NCBI GenBank assembly: GCA_963775585.1
Contig: CAVZJN010000024.1
Location: forward strand, 1-40,631
Source: an uncultured Chloroflexia bacterium
GTDB lineage: Bacteria > Chloroflexota > Ktedonobacteria > Ktedonobacterales > Ktedonobacteraceae
Direction of reading: 5' to 3'
Length of the DNA stretch: 40,631 nt
The position numbers and the translations under genes are program-made. How positions within the stretch are numbered: the first letter of the stretch is position 1; each line of letters begins with the position of its first letter. Under the pieces are notes generated by a model that saw only the letters and a program-made list of their open reading frames with translations, was not told where the DNA came from and searched no databases. Of this stretch, positions 301 through 40,402 are shown piece after piece.

Positions 301-606
301 TTAGTTGCGTGCGACCCGGACTTTGTCGTAGCAGGGGTTGCAATAGACGGGACGATCATTCTTGGGCAAGAATGGGACTTGCGTCTCGACACCGCACTCG
401 GCACAAATGACTGTGTGCATCTCGCGTGGGGCGCGCTCGCCAGAACGCCCACCCATGGACGCGCTGCGGCGTGCTGCGCGGCAGGATGGACAACGACCAG
501 GCTCATTCACCAGACCTTTTTGCTGGTAAAACTCTTGTTCACCGGCAGTGAATACGAAATCGTTTCCGCACTCACGGCACCTGAGGGTTTTGTCTTCGAA
601 GTTCAA
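301..606 (-). CDS. tandem CxxC zinc-ribbon domain protein (putative nucleic-acid or metal binding), TTG start
   Basis: 101-aa ORF with two CxxC...CxxC pairs (C10/C13-C39/C42 and C68/C71-C90/C93). N-terminal motif TLxCxxCGxxFVFTAGEQEFY is typical of a widespread small zinc-ribbon family. AAGGAGG RBS lies 7 nt upstream of a TTG start at 604-606. Confidence 0.6.
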   Translation of the reverse strand: MNFEDKTLRCRECGNDFVFTAGEQEFYQQKGLVNEPGRCPSCRAARRSASMGGRSGERAPREMHTVICAECGVETQVPFLPKNDRPVYCNPCYDKVRVARN

Positions 607-1054
607 CGAGGGACCTCCTTGTGATATGTTGGTATTCCTTCCATTTCAGGTCCATATCCTTGCAGATGTCACCAGTCGCCGACTCCCTTAACCAGCGAGG
701 GACTGGACGGATAACCTGACGAGCCATCAATATAGGAATCATGCGCGAGAAGTTTCACAGTTCTGCATTTCTCGCCAGAGTCACCGGACTCTGTGATTGC
801 GCCCTACATGTGTTGCGAGACCGACCGAGATAATCGAGGATACCGAAAAAAGCATACATCATACATTTCCGTTTTGCAAGGGTTTTCCCGTCAATTTGCT
901 GTTTCTCTTACCATCTTTATAAATTTTTTATGTCTATTCTTTACATTACGCATCGTTTTTGTATGGATAGTGTGTATGTGCGTATGGTTCGCTTGCATAA
1001 CCTGCTTTTCTGTGCTATCTTGCAAGCATCGTTCATTGTATATTTGGGTGGACT

Positions 1055-1134
1055 CGCGACAGGTCGCTCGTCAAAGAACTGTTGTGTGGGATTGGCTGCC
1101 AGTGACTTCGTCACTGGCAGCCAATCCCACACAA
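1055..1134. repeat. composite element: 16-nt motif CGCGACAGGTCGCTCG (1055-1070), 11-nt spacer, perfect 25-bp-arm inverted repeat (1082-1106 / 1110-1134, 3-nt loop)
   Basis: Read directly from the sequence. The arms are exact reverse complements. The same architecture recurs at 40271-40348 in opposite orientation. Confidence 0.8.
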
Positions 1135-1209
1135 AGAATAAAGTCTCCAAAACGAAAAGAGTCTCCAACGTAAAGAATCTCTCCGGGTGAATGGCTAAAA
1201 CAAGAATAT

Positions 1210-2394
1210 ATGACAGCATTTTTCTCTTTCGCGATTGACGCGGAATGTCCTGGTACGTGGGCACGGGCGGGCACTATCCACACGCCTCATGGTACTATTC
1301 ACACGCCAATTTTTATGCCGGTAGGCACGCAAGCTACGGTGAAAAGCGTCTCACCGGAGGAATTGCGCGCGGCAGGCGCGCAGATCATTCTCTCCAATAC
1401 CTACCACTTGATGTTGCGGCCTGGCTCGGAACTGATTGCTGCGTTCGGCGGATTGCACTCTTTTATGCACTGGGACGGGCCTATACTGACCGATAGCGGC
1501 GGCTTTCAGGTCTTTAGCCTTGGACACCTGCGTAAATTGAGCGAAGAAGGGGCCGCCTTCAAGTCGCATCTCGACGGCTCGCCGCACCTGTTGACACCCG
1601 AAAGCGTCATGCGCATCGAGTCCGAACTGGGCGCGGATATCATCCTGCCGCTGGATATCTGTGCCCCTTATCCCTGTACGCCCGTTGCCGCGAAGGAGGC
1701 AATGGAGCGTACCCACCGCTGGGTCGTACGCGCGCTGGTTGCCAAAGAAGAGCATCGACCTGAGCAGACGCTTTTTGGCATTGTGCAAGGGGCATTTGAA
1801 GCCGAACTGCGCCGGGAAAGCGCTCACTTTGTGGGAGATTTGCCCTTCCCAGGCCTCTCCATTGGCGGACTATCGGTTGGGGAACCCAAACAGCTGATGT
1901 GGGAGATGTTGTACGAGGTCACCCCGGCTCTGCCGCGTGAGAAGCCGCGCCACATGCTGGGCGTGGGATCACCGGAAGACTTTGTCGTCGCCGTTGGGCT
2001 GGGCATGGATATGTTCGACTGCGTTCTGCCCACCCGCGTGGCTCGCCATGGTGGACTTTTCACGCCCGGCGGGCGCATCAACATCAAATCCGCGCGCTTC
2101 CGCACTGAGCACGGTCCCATCGAAGAGGGCTGCGACTGCTATACCTGCCGCAATTATACTGCCGCCTACGTGCATCACCTGGCACGAGCGGAAGAGCTGC
2201 TCTATTTCCGCCTGGGCACTATCCACAATATTCACTTTATGCTGCGCCTGGCCAGCCAGTTGCGCGAGTCCATCATTGCTGGCACCTATCCTGCCTTCCG
2301 CGACGAGTTTATAGCAAGATATAAGCCCTCCTCGGAGAAAGTACGAGAAGAGCAGCGCGAAAAATGGAAGGTGGCACGATCACACATTGTATAA
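1210..2394 (+). CDS. tgt: queuine tRNA-ribosyltransferase
   Basis: Full-length similarity to Tgt: N-terminal PIFMPVGTQATVK motif and C-terminal zinc-site CxCxxC region (CDCYTC) are present. 394 aa. Confidence 0.9.
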   Translation: MTAFFSFAIDAECPGTWARAGTIHTPHGTIHTPIFMPVGTQATVKSVSPEELRAAGAQIILSNTYHLMLRPGSELIAAFGGLHSFMHWDGPILTDSGGFQVFSLGHLRKLSEEGAAFKSHLDGSPHLLTPESVMRIESELGADIILPLDICAPYPCTPVAAKEAMERTHRWVVRALVAKEEHRPEQTLFGIVQGAFEAELRRESAHFVGDLPFPGLSIGGLSVGEPKQLMWEMLYEVTPALPREKPRHMLGVGSPEDFVVAVGLGMDMFDCVLPTRVARHGGLFTPGGRINIKSARFRTEHGPIEEGCDCYTCRNYTAAYVHHLARAEELLYFRLGTIHNIHFMLRLASQLRESIIAGTYPAFRDEFIARYKPSSEKVREEQREKWKVARSHIV

Positions 2395-9957: not shown

Positions 9958-9968
9958 CATTGCATTCA

Positions 9969-10019
9969 TAAACGAGATGAGATCCTGTCGATATGTTCGA
10001 CAGGGTCTCATCTCGTTTA
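9969..10019. repeat. 22-bp-arm near-perfect inverted repeat (one G-U position), 7-nt loop, between convergent genes
   Basis: TAAACGAGATGAGATCCTGTCG / CGACAGGGTCTCATCTCGTTTA. No U-tract on either strand. A second 7-bp hairpin CGAAAAA/TTTTTCG follows at 10021-10047. Confidence 0.7.
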
Positions 10020-10030
10020 CGAAAAAACGA

Positions 10031-27583: not shown

Positions 27584-27755
27584 CAAACAGGTATATTCCT
27601 CACAATGGAACAGCCTCTTTCAGGACACGCTCTCTGATACGCTTCTCGCAGTCCCCGTTCGGTTACAACATCTACTTTGTAACCGAGCAGGTTCCTGCAG
27701 GTCCATCAGTAGTCCCCCGAGGTCGAAGAGGCTTGTGATTTTTCGTCTGCTGAAG

Positions 27756-30146: not shown

Positions 30147-31412
30147 GTGCGCATGTTCGAAAGAATATTCAGCAGAACAAGATTTCTCTTTCCCCTTCTA
30201 GTCGTCTTGTTCGCGGTGTTCTTGACTGGTTGGCTCCTTGTCGCTGCTCCAAGGCAGGGTGGGGCCTGGCTGCAGGCCGTCTCACTGCAGTCGCAACAAG
30301 CTCTCACCATCAATACTGACACGTCAACCCCTCGATTTTTAAACGGGAAACTTGCTTCGCTGGGTTGGATTGTTGGACACGATTGCCAGCGAGGTATGCG
30401 CGCCTACCTGCAAACCGCCGACACGAATCCCGACGCAGCCCTCGTAGGTACCGGCTGGCTTGACCCCACCACCGGCAAGTTCATTAGCGGTCAAAGCAAT
30501 AACTGCATGCCCGGCAGCCTCAGTATGGATAATGTGGTGCAACTGGTGCATAGCAAAGGTGGCATGGCCTATTTCACGGTGACCATGATGACCGACGGCT
30601 CGTCGCAGGCATGGACCTCACAACAGCAGTCGGACTACATTCGTAGAGCCACGACTGACCAGAGCTATATCGACAACATTGTGCACGAGGTTGAACGCGC
30701 CCACTATGATGGGGTCATCATGGATTTAGAGGCTGGCCTGGCCACGTATCCCAACATCCAGCAGCTCTTTGCCGCCTTCAACCAGCATATGTGGGCTGCT
30801 CTCAAGCCCCTGCACAAGTGGTATGGCATCGCCCTCATTCATAAACTCAGTGACCACGACGATTATTACAATCTCAATGCCTTTGAGAACTGGTCGCTGC
30901 TGGCTCATGTCTCTGACTTCATCGTTATCATGGCAGTTGACCAGTCCTACTTCTCTCCAGGCCCAACCGTCAGTATTCCCTGGCTAAAACAACTCCTGGC
31001 CTACACGGTGCGCACAATGCCCAATATGCTCCCACGCATCATTTGGGAACTCCCGCTCTATGGCGCCACCTGGCGCCTCTCAGGCGGTAAGTGGGTCTTT
31101 GACGGCGGGGTCAACTACTCCGATGGAGTTGCTCTTGTGCAGCAGATACCATCATCACAAATCGATAAAGCCGCCAGTAATTTGAATGATCCCACATGCG
31201 CCCACCTTGTCTATACCGACTCGTCTGGCGTTGAGCACTCCCTCTGGTACCACACAGCCAGGAACCTCTACTACATTATTTCGAACTTCCGCAAGATGAT
31301 AGAGCAGGTGCCGCAATTTGATCACAGCCATCTACAAATTGCCGTCTGGTACCGCGCAACCTGGGAGCCGGGAGATGTGTGGCCTATGCTGAAGGATGTG
31401 CTGCCTAACTGA
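30147..31412 (+). CDS. secreted/membrane-anchored GH18-like (chitinase-like TIM-barrel) protein with divergent catalytic motif
   Basis: N-terminal signal/anchor (FLFPLLVVLFAVFLTGWLLVAA). HYDGVIMDLEAG aligns with the GH18 FDGVDIDWE motif, but the middle Asp is Ile. Confidence 0.4.
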   Translation: MRMFERIFSRTRFLFPLLVVLFAVFLTGWLLVAAPRQGGAWLQAVSLQSQQALTINTDTSTPRFLNGKLASLGWIVGHDCQRGMRAYLQTADTNPDAALVGTGWLDPTTGKFISGQSNNCMPGSLSMDNVVQLVHSKGGMAYFTVTMMTDGSSQAWTSQQQSDYIRRATTDQSYIDNIVHEVERAHYDGVIMDLEAGLATYPNIQQLFAAFNQHMWAALKPLHKWYGIALIHKLSDHDDYYNLNAFENWSLLAHVSDFIVIMAVDQSYFSPGPTVSIPWLKQLLAYTVRTMPNMLPRIIWELPLYGATWRLSGGKWVFDGGVNYSDGVALVQQIPSSQIDKAASNLNDPTCAHLVYTDSSGVEHSLWYHTARNLYYIISNFRKMIEQVPQFDHSHLQIAVWYRATWEPGDVWPMLKDVLPN

Positions 31413-31415
31413 AAT

Positions 31416-31459
31416 AAACGCTGAGAGCAGGTAACTCGCTCTCAGCGTTTTTCTTTCAG
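31416..31459. terminator. bidirectional intrinsic terminator (13-bp stem AAACGCTGAGAGC/GCTCTCAGCGTTT) between convergent GH18-like gene and groEL
   Basis: The stem is followed by TTTTTCTTTC on the plus strand and by TTTATTTCAG on the minus strand. A second perfect palindrome CCTTTATCGCGATAAAGG lies at 31461-31478. Confidence 0.65.
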
Positions 31460-38332: not shown

Positions 38333-39244
38333 ATGCACATTCTCATTATCCGTCCCGGGGCCATCGGCGACACCCTGCTCACATTTCCCATTATACAGGC
38401 TATAAGAAACCAATATAGCAACCCTCATATCGCCCTGGTCGGCAATCCCGCCGTCCTGCCTCTCGCCCTGGCCTCTGACCTCGTGGACAAAACCTCCGAT
38501 TACGGACAACTCCAGTGGAGCGGCCTCTTCTCAACAAATAACACGTTCTCACCCGCCATGCTCAGTCAGCTCCAACATACCGATCTTGTCATCTGCTGGC
38601 TGCGCGACCCCGAAAGCGTGGTAGAGCGAAACCTGCGCCTGGCCGGTGTCAAAAAAGTAATTATCGCCGCTGGCCGCCCACCAGAAGGCGAGGCAATACA
38701 CATTGTTCAATACCTGGCGCAAACCATCGAACTACAACATGTCGAGATGCCCTATACACTCTCCCTCAAACCTGCTGAACAAACCACAGGAGAGACTGAT
38801 AACCGGCGCATAGTCATTCATCCTGGGAGTGGGAGCGTACAGAAATGTTGGCCCGTTCCCTTCTTCGCCGCCCTCATCGAACAGCTCTGGCAGCGTAACC
38901 ACCCTGTTCTTCTACTCGCAGGCCCTGCCGATCACCAGCGCGTCAAAGATATTCAGCGCCTGCTCTCACCTCAACCGCAGCCGGGTCTGCTCTCCACTCT
39001 TATAGATATGCCGTTGATAGATGTTGCACAGCATTTGCTACAGTGTTGGTGTTACATCGGCAATGACTCCGGCATCACGCACCTGGCGGCCATGCTCAAT
39101 GTACCTACCGTCGCCCTCTTTGGGCCAACCGACCCCAACACGTGGGGGCCAGTTGGACCTGCTGTAACCATCATCCAGGAGTACCAATTGAAGAACTTAT
39201 CTGTACAAACCGTCCTGAACTGCATCTTGCACCGTTTTCCGTAA
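38333..39244 (+). CDS. glycosyltransferase family 9 (heptosyltransferase-like)
   Basis: MHILIIRPGAIGDTLLTFP... and the C-terminal IGNDSGITHLAAMLNVPTVALFGPTDP motif. Confidence 0.8.
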   Translation: MHILIIRPGAIGDTLLTFPIIQAIRNQYSNPHIALVGNPAVLPLALASDLVDKTSDYGQLQWSGLFSTNNTFSPAMLSQLQHTDLVICWLRDPESVVERNLRLAGVKKVIIAAGRPPEGEAIHIVQYLAQTIELQHVEMPYTLSLKPAEQTTGETDNRRIVIHPGSGSVQKCWPVPFFAALIEQLWQRNHPVLLLAGPADHQRVKDIQRLLSPQPQPGLLSTLIDMPLIDVAQHLLQCWCYIGNDSGITHLAAMLNVPTVALFGPTDPNTWGPVGPAVTIIQEYQLKNLSVQTVLNCILHRFP

Positions 39245-39402
39245 TGGGCAGAAGGGAATGTGACGTTATAACACAGTAATTCAAAAGCAAATATAGCCCT
39301 TCTGGTATACATGACTGTACACACCGTAAAAGAAAGTGTACACTGAACAGTATTGGAACAGATCAGCGAAACAATGGAGAAGAGGAGGAGCATGTCACCC
39401 GG

Positions 39403-40254
39403 ATGATTAATCAGCCTGAAACACAGGGAAAGCAACCTGAACAGGGAAACTTAGTACTGCCGGCTTATCCCCGGCAAGTGCCGCCAGTCTACCCTGACCC
39501 TGAAAATCATGTAGCAAGTAATAACACTGGTAACTTGCCTTACCAACCGATTCGCCCTGATCAGCTTATTCGTCGCACGACAACGCCCCCTCCCCAAAAC
39601 CTTCTTGCCAGGCTACTCTATTTCTGGAAAAAAGATCCCGCATACAAAGTACTGATGATCGCGGTGGTTCTGATCTTTATCTCAAGCTTATTATTTGTCT
39701 CACTGATTGGTAACGCACTGTTTCGCAACCCAAATTTCTTGACTATAGGCAATAACTTTTCGCCGAATCCTCCCACACCGGTAGTGCCTACCGGAACGGT
39801 TGATCTCCGCCCGACATTTCCACCACCCAGTGGTGGCAACGGCAGCACTTCCAGCAGTCAGCCTCCGGCGCAAGGGACTCCTGCGCTGCAATCAACCCCC
39901 GACGCTAATCCCAGTCCAACCCCCAATCCCGGTGGAGGAGGTCCATTAACTATCACCGTTACCAATATCCCTACTCAAGTAGTGAATTACAGTGTAGTCA
40001 GTGTGAGTGTCAACACAAGTCTACCAAACATCACTGTCACATTGGGGGTCTATTATAACGTTGCTCCCTACAGGTATGTCTCTGCCCCTGTAACAACCGA
40101 TGGCAATGGCAATGCCGTCCTATCCTGGTCGGTGGCAGTCATTATGAATGGTCGCCATACCCGGGCCTTCGTCTTCGCGGTAGCCCAGAACCAGAACGGC
40201 CAAAAAGCCCAATCCCAGGCGGTAAATGTCCAAATAACAGCCCGCGGCAACTAA
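39403..40254 (+). CDS. hypothetical proline-rich membrane-anchored protein with beta-rich C-terminal domain
   Basis: One TM helix (VLMIAVVLIFISSLLFVSLIG), then a P/T/S-rich linker and a about 100-aa region of alternating hydrophobic residues. Confidence 0.45.
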   Translation: MINQPETQGKQPEQGNLVLPAYPRQVPPVYPDPENHVASNNTGNLPYQPIRPDQLIRRTTTPPPQNLLARLLYFWKKDPAYKVLMIAVVLIFISSLLFVSLIGNALFRNPNFLTIGNNFSPNPPTPVVPTGTVDLRPTFPPPSGGNGSTSSSQPPAQGTPALQSTPDANPSPTPNPGGGGPLTITVTNIPTQVVNYSVVSVSVNTSLPNITVTLGVYYNVAPYRYVSAPVTTDGNGNAVLSWSVAVIMNGRHTRAFVFAVAQNQNGQKAQSQAVNVQITARGN

Positions 40255-40270
40255 TAACATCATCCTCTCT

Positions 40271-40348
40271 GTGTCGAGTGGACGGGTCGCGGTGCACCGC
40301 GACCCGTCCACTCGACACATCATACTTCTTGGCGAGCGACTTGTCGCG
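40271..40348. repeat. composite element, second copy in inverted orientation: perfect 48-nt palindrome (24-bp arms, 40271-40318), 14-nt spacer, motif CGAGCGACTTGTCGCG (40333-40348)
   Basis: The motif is the reverse complement of CGCGACAAGTCGCTCG, 15/16 identical to 1055-1070. The palindrome arms are exact reverse complements of each other. Confidence 0.8.
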
Positions 40349-40368
40349 AAACGTGAAATTTATTGCCT

Positions 40369-40402
40369 TTTGTGCGTATAATTTCTTTGTGCGTATAATT
40401 TC
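40369..40402 (+). repeat. perfect 17-nt tandem direct repeat (TTTGTGCGTATAATTTC x2) duplicating a TATAAT -10-like box
   Basis: Read directly. The second TATAAT at 40395-40400 is 18 nt downstream of the TTGTGC of the first unit. It lies about 90 nt upstream of the MoxR-like start. Confidence 0.6.

Follow-up and report, generated by a model that had tools for sequence, protein, structure and literature searches.

A palindrome and mini-hairpin module with gain, loss and arm co-variation at intergenic sites of soil Ktedonobacteraceae

The stretch of DNA analysed here, 40,631 nucleotides of contig CAVZJN010000024.1 from an uncultured member of the Ktedonobacteraceae (GenBank assembly GCA_963775585.1), is called the window throughout, and it carries near each end a composite element in which a long palindrome stands beside a small conserved hairpin motif. 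Exact matches to its proteins and the names of homologues assign it to uncultured soil Ktedonobacteraceae of the phylum Chloroflexota. At site 1 the element lies in the intergenic region of a zf_Tbcl zinc-ribbon gene and tgt, which are divergent as an earlier note on this sequence had described, and at site 2 it lies between a gene for a proline-rich membrane protein and moxR (Table 1). The layout given in that note for site 1, a 16-mer followed after 11 nt by 25-bp arms and a 3-nt loop, was confirmed in the sequence, the two 25-nt arms being 100% complementary. For site 2 the claimed mirror layout stands, as does the match of the reverse complement of the 16-mer at 40333-40348 (15 of 16 bases), but the perfect arms of palindrome 2 measure 25 nt rather than 24, with no central spacer between them, and the spacer before the motif is 13 nt rather than 14. 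The two palindromes had been called unrelated, which is true of their interiors but not of their outer TGTGT...ACACA ends, and the 16-nt motif, although real, is part of a longer conserved block, an 18-nt core within about 35-40 nt. Loci from other assemblies are cited by label where they need to be told apart; L118 and L126 are Ktedonobacteraceae metagenome-assembled genomes (MAGs) and L004 is GCA_009772695.1.

Table 1. Positions of the features discussed, in window coordinates unless a locus label is given
Feature	Position	Strand	Remarks
zf_Tbcl zinc-ribbon gene	301-606	-	
Promoter-like TTGCAT-17 nt-TATCTT	993-1021	+	TGc abuts the -10 hexamer; kept in related species
tgt leader segment without counterpart in L004	1030-1209	+	AT dinucleotide at each junction
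Site 1 tail TCCACCCAAA, conserved	1043-1052	-	3' end of the module
Site 1 motif core, 18 nt, CGAGCGACCTGTCGCGAG	1053-1070	-	Mini-hairpin GCGAC-CT-GTCGC, flanks CGA / GAG
16-mer of the earlier note, CGCGACAGGTCGCTCG	1055-1070	+	
Site 1 spacer CAGTTCTTTGA, 11 nt, palindrome to motif	1071-1081	-	Pyrimidine-rich; TTCTTGG match at other sites
Palindrome 1	1082-1134	no strand	Arms 1082-1106 / 1110-1134, TTGTGTGGGATTGGCTGCCAGTGAC / GTCACTGGCAGCCAATCCCACACAA; loop TTC
tgt	1210-2394	+	
Third long hairpin	9965-10023	no strand	27-nt arms, 2 mismatches (93% complementary), 5-nt loop; between convergent Band_7 and rhodanese genes
283-aa proline-rich membrane-protein gene	39403-40254	+	
Palindrome 2	40270-40319	no strand	Arms 40270-40294 / 40295-40319, TGTGTCGAGTGGACGGGTCGCGGTG / CACCGCGACCCGTCCACTCGACACA
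Site 2 spacer TCATACTTCTTGG, 13 nt	40320-40332	+	
Site 2 motif core CGAGCGACTTGTCGCGAA	40333-40350	+	
moxR promoter-like GTGAAA-18-TATAAT	40353-40382	+	Directly 3' of the module, outside it; kept in L126 and L172-L176
moxR	starts 40491	+	
RelA/sigma-70 palindromes	L171 1847-1903; L173 3138-3188; L174 2201-2244		

Taken over all loci, the element is a non-coding module of about 95-110 nt that occurs only in a single sub-lineage of soil Ktedonobacteraceae. Its parts, in the sense of the downstream gene, are a long perfect palindrome, a pyrimidine-rich spacer of 10-14 nt, an 18-nt mini-hairpin and a CCAC..CCAAA tail. The palindromes have arms of 23-25 bp whose interiors are unrelated across loci, and share the outer arm ends TGTGT(C/G)G(A/G)...ACACA, only the outer 5-8 bp being alike between loci. 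Aligned on the strand that runs from palindrome to motif, the loci have in common a block of about 35-40 nt, TTCYTKG-(A)CGA-GCGAC-YT-GTCGC-GAG-NCCAC-(0-2 nt)-CCAAA, in which the mini-hairpin follows the consensus CGA-GCGAC-YT-GTCGC-GAG with invariant CGA and GAG flanks. At window site 2 the CCAC..CCAAA tail has gone through a deletion of about 60 nt relative to L126. In the L118 orthologue of site 2 (L118dn) and in L173 the loop of the mini-hairpin has grown from 2 to 5 nt and an A-U pair has become G.U, the stem register being unchanged; such one-sided A-U to G.U changes are the only covariation found in the mini-hairpin.

That the composite is non-random, as had been claimed, was borne out by shuffled sequence, in which 0.45 motif matches at no more than three mismatches would be expected by chance, and by five shuffles of the window, in which no perfect inverted repeat of at least 12 nt occurred against 14 seed positions observed. 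The same palindromes are present in independent Illumina and Nanopore assemblies, and because they were recovered independently from ENA, JGI and NCBI they are not an assembly artefact. Folded as RNA, the L118 module reaches -70.6 kcal/mol (z = -9.1). Rfam gave nothing at gathering thresholds for the whole window and, in E-value mode over 950-1230, only generic miRNA-hairpin matches far below threshold; a BLAST search of the L118 module against plasmid and phage collections found no match, and for a conserved tail travelling with a palindrome no counterpart was met in Rfam or in the literature searched. Several readings of the module were tried and set aside. By eye, a sigma-54 promoter (TGGC-N7-TTGT) fails at site 1, which has TGAC for TGGC and no -12 GC; tRNA T-arm, att-site and attC readings were ruled out on sequence; and symmetry about a replication origin or terminus as the cause of the mirror orientation was rejected, the window having no GC-skew switch.

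Three collections were scanned for the motif: viral contigs with the 16-mer, 185,579 species genomes with the 19-mer GRCGAGCGACYTGTCGCGA, and JGI metagenomes with a 20-mer. The viral contigs gave 60 single matches, which served as the null set, and the longest perfect inverted repeat within 150 nt of them had 10-nt arms. Among the species genomes there were 73 matches, one per genome and from many phyla; 70 have arms of at most 9 nt nearby and were read as chance in GC-rich genomes, while L108, from an unrelated GC-rich Chloroflexi MAG, falls in coding-like sequence, and the two informative matches were L118 and L126, which are intergenic and related to the window sites. The metagenomes gave 25 matches, 19 of them chance matches in unrelated, mostly GC-rich coding-like DNA and the other six strain-level orthologues of site 1 (L152, L162, L166) or of site 2 (L148, L149, L158). 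Altogether the chance matches in other taxa number about 150, and no palindrome whose arms exceed 10 nt lies within 150 nt of any of them; nhmmer profiles of the motif region detected no extra copy among the Ktedonobacteraceae loci, within 1.4 Mb of loci. The module loci of all scans come to three intergenic sites in one syntenic region of about 40 kb. Since in three scans only the clade matches adjoin palindromes or their remnants, the motif is rare and clade-restricted and, inside the clade, stands by a long palindrome or a remnant of one, which is the association that the earlier note had proposed to search for.

It is nonetheless conceivable that the two parts are independent, the palindromes being clade-typical terminators and the motif a duplex-DNA operator for the zinc-ribbon gene or a conserved leader, for moxR and for a 286-aa gene of the region, with incidental adjacency. 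GCGAC-NN-GTCGC is a 12-bp dyad which is always upstream of a same-strand gene, and motif-free palindromes are common at gene ends. However, the order, the orientation and the 11-14-nt spacing repeat at three loci, the roughly 150 chance motifs come without a palindrome, and motif and palindrome have been gained and lost jointly, the motif decaying after the palindrome breaks. Moreover, L118dn and L173 have 5 nt instead of 2 at the dyad centre, a change that a dimeric operator is not expected to accommodate, and the distance to the downstream promoter is not fixed but ranges from 4 to about 65 nt. A duplex operator is thus disfavoured and a single-stranded hairpin favoured, because the dyad centre gains three bases and the promoter distance varies, and we consider incidental adjacency quite improbable.

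Comparison with relatives revealed the presence/absence polymorphism that the earlier note had suggested looking for (in L004, three related species, L118 and L126/L176), but not the target-site duplication, since no flanking direct repeat was found at the three loci and the sole repeat is the AT dinucleotide that borders the L004 deletion on both sides. Seven strain-level sequences (the window, L001-3, L152, L162 and L166) carry the module at site 1. L004, about 99% identical, is without window 1030-1209, that is, all of the sequence between the promoter-like site and the tgt ATG, and in three related species (L167, L168/169 and L171, with Tgt 84-86% identical) the tgt leader has neither motif nor palindrome. 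These outgroup leaders are 40-47 nt long, their ends are homologous to the ends of the window leader, and homology to the empty sites picks up again near 1043-1052. As the outgroups keep a short leader without the module, the site 1 module (about 95 nt, roughly 1043-1134) is an insertion in the window lineage, and L004 has undergone a secondary deletion that took out its entire leader. For the 180-nt L004 indel, Helitron or IS91-like ends were considered and rejected, as the termini misfit and the outgroups show a deletion, not an empty site. In L004 the promoter-like site ends 6 nt ahead of the tgt ATG, and because the deletion puts its -10 six bases from that codon, a leaderless tgt mRNA is possible there.

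Both the second and the third locus are occupied in L118, which carries two modules in a gene order (accC-fabF-BCCP-GT9-286-aa gene) syntenic with the window's right end. L118dn has the palindrome TGTGTCGAATCGGCTGGGCACGGC-ttc-GCCGTGCCCAGCCCATTCGACACA, with one mismatch, and the variant motif CGAGCGGC-CGCAG-GTCGCGAG. The other module, L118up, lies between the GT9 and 286-aa genes and has a different palindrome with perfect 25-bp arms (L118 5252-5304) and a motif identical to the window type, its motif and tail being almost identical to those of L126; the position is empty in the window, in L172, in L174 and in L173, the sister of L118. At site 2 the arms of the homologous palindrome of L173 are 20 bp long and contain two mismatches, and the variant motif stands beside it; in L126 and L176 the motif is accompanied by right-arm-like sequence only, L172 and L175 have a different hairpin of 12-15 bp that overlaps the moxR -35, and L174 has none. 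Protein identities group these lineages as ((window/L148, L126), L172), (L118, L173), L174. Since the site 2 palindrome is common to lineages whose FabF is only about 92% identical, with arms that are about 30% diverged and compensated, the site 2 module is old, and seems to have been half-deleted later in L126/L176 and replaced or lost in L172/L175. The recent templated generation once proposed for the palindromes therefore fails as to its recency, although templated upkeep of the arms agrees with the inversions and compensation seen. In L176 the motif has decayed to CGAGCGACTTGGTGCGAG (GTCGCG to GGTGCG), and because this occurred where the palindrome is half-lost it gives a hint that constraint on the motif lasts only as long as the palindrome is unbroken.

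In the lineages without the module, the hairpin at the moxR -35 has the form CACCC...GGGTG (L172 5792-5825; L175 about 1867-1903), and degraded traces of it, as of the module, persist in L126 and L176.

Two accounts of how the module came to its sites have to be weighed against this record. One is that the palindromes were made locally, the motif being older and fold-back or template switching having copied the sequence that adjoins it, with L126 as the pre-palindrome state. L126 and L176 do have the motif with only a right-arm homologue, palindrome interiors are unrelated between loci, tandem duplications 5' of the left arm are typical of slippage or template switching, and the creation of perfect stems in one step by template switching has been documented (PMC8794818). 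Yet L126 belongs beside the window (the MoxR proteins of L126 and L148 share 96.6% identity, those of L148 and L173 90.3%), and arm loss in L126 is simpler because the more distant L118 and L173 have the homologous palindrome. Motif and palindrome are also jointly absent from relatives at site 1 and at L118up, and since they are absent together they must have come together; furthermore, the TGTGT(C/G)G(A/G) ends common to all loci are left unexplained by local copying. We hold local origin to be improbable, though slightly less so than incidental adjacency.

The other account makes the module a non-autonomous IS200/IS605-type element (PATE-like), in which palindrome and mini-hairpin are the subterminal hairpins for a Y1 HUH transposase that acts in trans by peel-and-paste. 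Such an element should have two hairpins, no terminal inverted repeat beyond the palindrome and no target-site duplication, and this is what was found, together with clean presence and absence at three sites, a conserved motif sequence and invariant CGA and GAG flanks. The host clade is rich in the superfamily: Ktedonobacter genomes abound in IS605-superfamily elements (ISC, IS605B) whose ends bear imperfect hairpins, and some of these insert at GT|GG, GT|GA or GT|GT (PMC4810608). A donor elsewhere can also be argued, because L118up carries the window-type motif and not the variant of its neighbour L118dn. Against this, the palindrome interior differs wholly between copies, whereas a hairpin read by a transposase should be conserved, and perfect 25-bp arms far exceed the known end hairpins of IS605. 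The left flanks (TCTT, CTCTC, TACC, TTCC and TTCT, at boundaries that are approximate) give no clear target tetranucleotide, the collection-wide scans gave three loci only, and no tnpA was noticed in about 220 kb of related DNA, in which no systematic search for it was made. Mobilisation of this kind is therefore unlikely in our judgement, if somewhat less so than local origin. The MITE-like element that the earlier note had named is not supported in the usual sense of the term, there being no target-site duplication, no multi-copy family and only three loci in all the scans.

How the palindromes evolve was followed in an alignment of seven of them, from three loci, made from the outer ends. 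Of its cells 97.5% are paired and 14 of the 23 pairs have changed on both sides; none of 500 shuffles reached the observed value, and sliding the partner by 1-3 columns reduced pairing to 30-39%. The window and L118dn arms of site 2 differ at 7 of 24 positions, six of which are compensated on the opposite arm, and compensated arm changes run through the site 2 orthologues L148, L118 and L173. Compensated A-T / G-C switches occur even between near-identical strains (window and L162 at site 1, window and L148 at site 2), and single-arm intermediates of the switch are found in L152 and L166, with two A.C mismatches in L152 that would be G.U on the tgt-sense strand. Read on one strand, the site 1 loop of the window, L003 and L152 is GAA, that of L002, L162 and L166 TTC, and that of L001 GAC; as its orientation is independent of the arm variant, the flips recur. 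In the third hairpin the central 19 nt of L006, which contain asymmetric mismatch markers, are the exact reverse complement of those in L004, L005 and L007, which is unambiguously an inversion and not a set of point mutations.

Compensation at the RNA level usually proceeds via G.U intermediates (PMC5381666), whereas G.U pairs make up only 2 of 160 cells in the palindrome alignment, and because of this rarity the data fit a correction at the DNA level or a need to pair on both strands. Template switching has been described as making and repairing perfect stems, with compensatory changes and loop inversions (PMC8794818), and a study in yeast reports homogenisation of inverted repeats with a template-switch signature (PMC8604942). 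Arm homogenisation together with spacer inversion is the signature of template switching between the arms, and it is this mechanism that we infer for the palindromes described here.

Short tandem direct duplications were seen directly 5' of the left arm, in motif-strand orientation, at site 1, L118up, L118dn and L173 (approximate coordinates L118 5217-5251 and 6610-6654, L173 10871-10895, window 1135-1175), and may be footprints of slippage or template switching.

The palindrome part of the module has relatives elsewhere in the clade. The third long hairpin lacks the motif, as had been noted, although its limits are 9965-10023 and not 9969-10019, and it falls in the same class as the long gene-end palindromes; all three convergent gene junctions of the window have a hairpin (this one, 27654-27691 and 31412-31454). 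At the orthologous convergent RelA/sigma-70 junction three species have perfect palindromes with arms of 27, 24 and 21 bp and unrelated sequences, which would indicate a fast turnover of gene-end palindromes. The absence of mismatches, which the earlier note took for something special, is hence shared by perfect 21-27-bp palindromes of unrelated sequence at convergent gene ends. In site 2, L118up, L118dn and L173 the palindrome begins 16-55 nt after a stop codon, the shortest distance being that from the 283-aa gene at site 2, and a T-rich TTCTT follows 6-10 nt past the stem of the composite palindromes. Because unrelated, motif-free palindromes occupy convergent gene ends clade-wide, a terminator or insulator reading leads, and the palindrome part is most likely the gene-end hairpin of the clade, serving as a terminator, insulator or 3'-end stabiliser. 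A simple terminator role had been thought unlikely at site 1; the class of gene-end palindromes and the onset 16 nt past the stop codon at site 2 keep it viable. Beside the RelA/sigma-70 palindrome of L173 the sequence GCGACAGGTCG was tried as a relative of the motif and dismissed as coincidence, being inside the RelA coding sequence and not found in L171 or L174.

Site 1 raises a further alternative. As the earlier note stated, the element there lies in a leader or promoter region, with the promoter-like site on one side and the tgt ATG beyond, and this site, which scores under the threshold of the promoter scan, would transcribe through motif and palindrome into tgt. The module could accordingly be a cis-regulatory leader RNA, an attenuator or RNase III processing site that adjusts the expression of tgt at site 1 and, at the other loci, of moxR or the 286-aa gene. 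A perfect duplex of at least 20 bp is an ideal RNase III substrate, and the length of the palindrome duplex suits that enzyme; the conserved promoter-like site ahead of the module and the tgt start codon after it, the L152 mismatches that would be G.U on the tgt-sense strand, and the L004 leader deletion that leaves the promoter 6 nt from the ATG likewise agree with such a role. But at site 2 and in L118dn the module is upstream of the moxR promoter and so outside the transcript, the orientation to the regulated gene is reversed at site 1, Rfam has no match, and the tgt of three related species does without the module. Of all the alternatives we regard a leader RNA as the least probable, and very improbable as such.

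The explanation that we favour, at a probability of about 0.42, joins the observed anatomy, distribution, gain and loss, co-variation and inversions in a single account of a gene-end hairpin module. The palindrome would act on RNA as a bidirectional transcript-end or insulator hairpin without a U-tract. When one arm changes, template switching between the arms during replication would transfer the change to the other, and the same switching would invert the loop; since changes are copied from arm to arm in this way, the stems could stay perfect while their sequence drifts. The motif with its tail would be a sequence-constrained partner that works only with the palindrome, which is the weakest step, and our best guess is that the motif is a small protein-recognised hairpin used for transfer of the module or for action at transcript ends. 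Insertion or deletion of the whole module has taken place at three intergenic sites, and in this it resembles a low-copy, REP/BIME-like or PATE-like transferable hairpin cassette and no fixed regulatory site.

Several points weigh against this explanation. There is no U-tract after either composite palindrome, and the terminator scan is blank at 1082-1134 and 40270-40319; site 1 is behind no gene, lying in the tgt leader between the promoter-like site and the start codon, and it is from position only that a role in termination, insulation or processing would be deduced. Only 5 bp make up the stem of the mini-hairpin, which shows no double compensatory change and loses one of its pairs in L173. 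The gain and loss history of site 2 fits more than one reconstruction, the empty sites belong to diverged species and define the insertion boundaries only approximately, and no transposase, target-site duplication or defined ends were found at what are three loci in all. Finally, L001 and L002 are Nanopore-style assemblies with less reliable loop calls; short-read assemblies underlie the flips in L162, L166 and L006.

A bolder reading is that the module serves some hairpin-dependent DNA transaction not described so far, as its substrate: a protein would read CGA-GCGAC-YT-GTCGC-GAG on single-stranded DNA and move or seed a self-correcting, perfect palindrome into intergenic DNA. We rate this as unlikely, albeit ahead of the PATE-like and the remaining alternatives. 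If true, the module would be a mobile terminator cassette whose stem is free to drift as only its ends and the tail are read.

If the favoured account is correct, these loci are a clean natural bacterial case of template switching keeping long hairpins perfect between near-identical strains, a process recorded until now chiefly in rRNA, miRNA and yeast inverted repeats. The Ktedonobacteraceae appear to use unusually long, perfect, U-tract-free gene-end palindromes with fast turnover, which bears on termination in a little-studied phylum and on the prediction of terminators there, and the conserved motif provides a handle, for example as bait in a pull-down, by which a protein that recognises it could be identified. 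The palindromes are also an annotation hazard, as they create false mirror-image open reading frames. Such frames had been pointed out before and were seen again: the one that runs through palindrome 1 (window 930-1190, + strand; L001 9721-9981) has been called as an 86-aa gene in the public L001 assembly, a call that is almost certainly spurious.

Other features of the window were observed alongside. Between the start of the zinc-ribbon gene and the tgt promoter (about 620-1030) are long non-coding blocks that are near-invariant in four Ktedonobacteraceae species, for instance CAGTCCCTCGCTGGT.AAGGGAGT.GGCGACTGGTGACATCTGCAAGGATATGGACCTGAAATGGAAGGAATACCAACATATCACAAGGAGG; Rfam has no match for them, and they are a candidate structured 5' untranslated region or non-coding RNA of the zinc-ribbon gene. 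Just past that gene, to the left of window position 1, L001 and L002 (1-9000 in each) diverge fully, L001 having a DDE_3 transposase, ADH genes and an integrase and L002 an integrase fragment, DUF6444 and polysaccharide genes, so that the left edge of the window looks like the boundary of a variable island. At the other end, a perfect 17-nt tandem duplication, TTTGTGCGTATAATTTC twice, covers the -10 region of the moxR promoter (40369-40402); L126 and L172-L176 have one copy and L148 has two, the second mutated. Upstream of the 283-aa gene, 39293-39342 holds ATAGCCCTTCTGGTATACA followed by the inverted repeat TGTACAC-N13-GTGTACA, and its conservation in all the species compared (L118, L172-L176) makes an operator or promoter probable. 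For the window proteins encoded at 39403-40254 and 38333-39244 there are no exact-sequence records.

Compared with known systems, the module resembles intrinsic and bidirectional terminators (Safina et al. 2017, PMC5381666) in having GC-rich stem-loops after stop codons and between convergent genes, and in stems that evolve by compensated Watson-Crick switches. It has the stable GC-rich stem-loop of that class, and it takes a 3'-end position at site 2, L118up, L118dn and L173, though not at site 1, where it is in the tgt leader. Unlike intrinsic terminators it has no U-tract, the 21-27-bp arms without mismatch or G.U are far longer and cleaner, one copy stands in a 5' leader, and a conserved tail motif is attached.

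The REPs of enterobacteria are imperfect palindromes of about 35 nt with conserved sequence and hundreds of copies, and are linked to RAYT transposases. Like REP and BIME elements, the module is an intergenic, non-coding palindromic unit with an adjacent conserved motif, found in 3' untranslated regions and between convergent genes and variably present among strains. Its palindrome is in contrast perfect, about 50 nt long and sequence-variable, with about three loci and no known mobilising enzyme; in place of high-copy, conserved, imperfect units with a 5' tetranucleotide there are few copies, perfect arms and variable interiors. Foldback MITEs (Correia and similar) are small, non-coding and palindromic, polymorphic in presence and absence, and can carry terminators or promoters. 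The module shares with them its small size, its palindromic, non-coding nature and its presence/absence polymorphism between related genomes, but it has no target-site duplication and no family of near-identical copies, its loci sharing the outer 5-8 bp only, and the scans gave at most one match per genome with the 19-mer and the two window sites in the metagenomes. Integron attC sites are imperfect palindromes with extrahelical bases that carry conserved R''/R' core sites (RYYYAAC / GTTRRRY) and form arrays close to intI; this was rejected for the module, whose ends are TGTGT/ACACA, whose arms are perfect and whose neighbours are housekeeping genes.

REPs have been proposed as context-dependent regulators in 3' untranslated regions (bioRxiv 10.64898/2026.03.23.713779). 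PATEs and other non-autonomous IS200/IS605 elements (Kapitonov et al. 2016, PMC4810608) are, like the module, short, non-coding and hairpin-bearing, and have neither terminal inverted repeats nor target duplications. In IS605 elements the end hairpins are short and imperfect with a conserved sequence, and the elements insert at specific tetranucleotides and form multi-copy families. No such target or family was seen for the module; its mini-hairpin and flanks are conserved, but its long palindrome is perfect and differs between loci. The hairpins attributed to template switching (Monttinen and Loytynoja 2022, PMC8794818; for inverted repeats of yeast, PMC8604942) have the same perfect stems, multi-base compensation and loop or spacer inversions, and in the module both spacer or loop inversion and arm homogenisation were found between close relatives; that work treats a mutational process in rRNA, miRNA and coding genes, whereas here bacterial gene-end palindromes with a motif are concerned. 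As it lacks a high-copy family, a target duplication, a conserved long hairpin and a U-tract, the module is an intergenic palindromic element that is a member of no named family, and by analogy its closest relatives would be the REP/BIME elements and then PATE-type elements, with foldback MITEs and bidirectional terminators also related.

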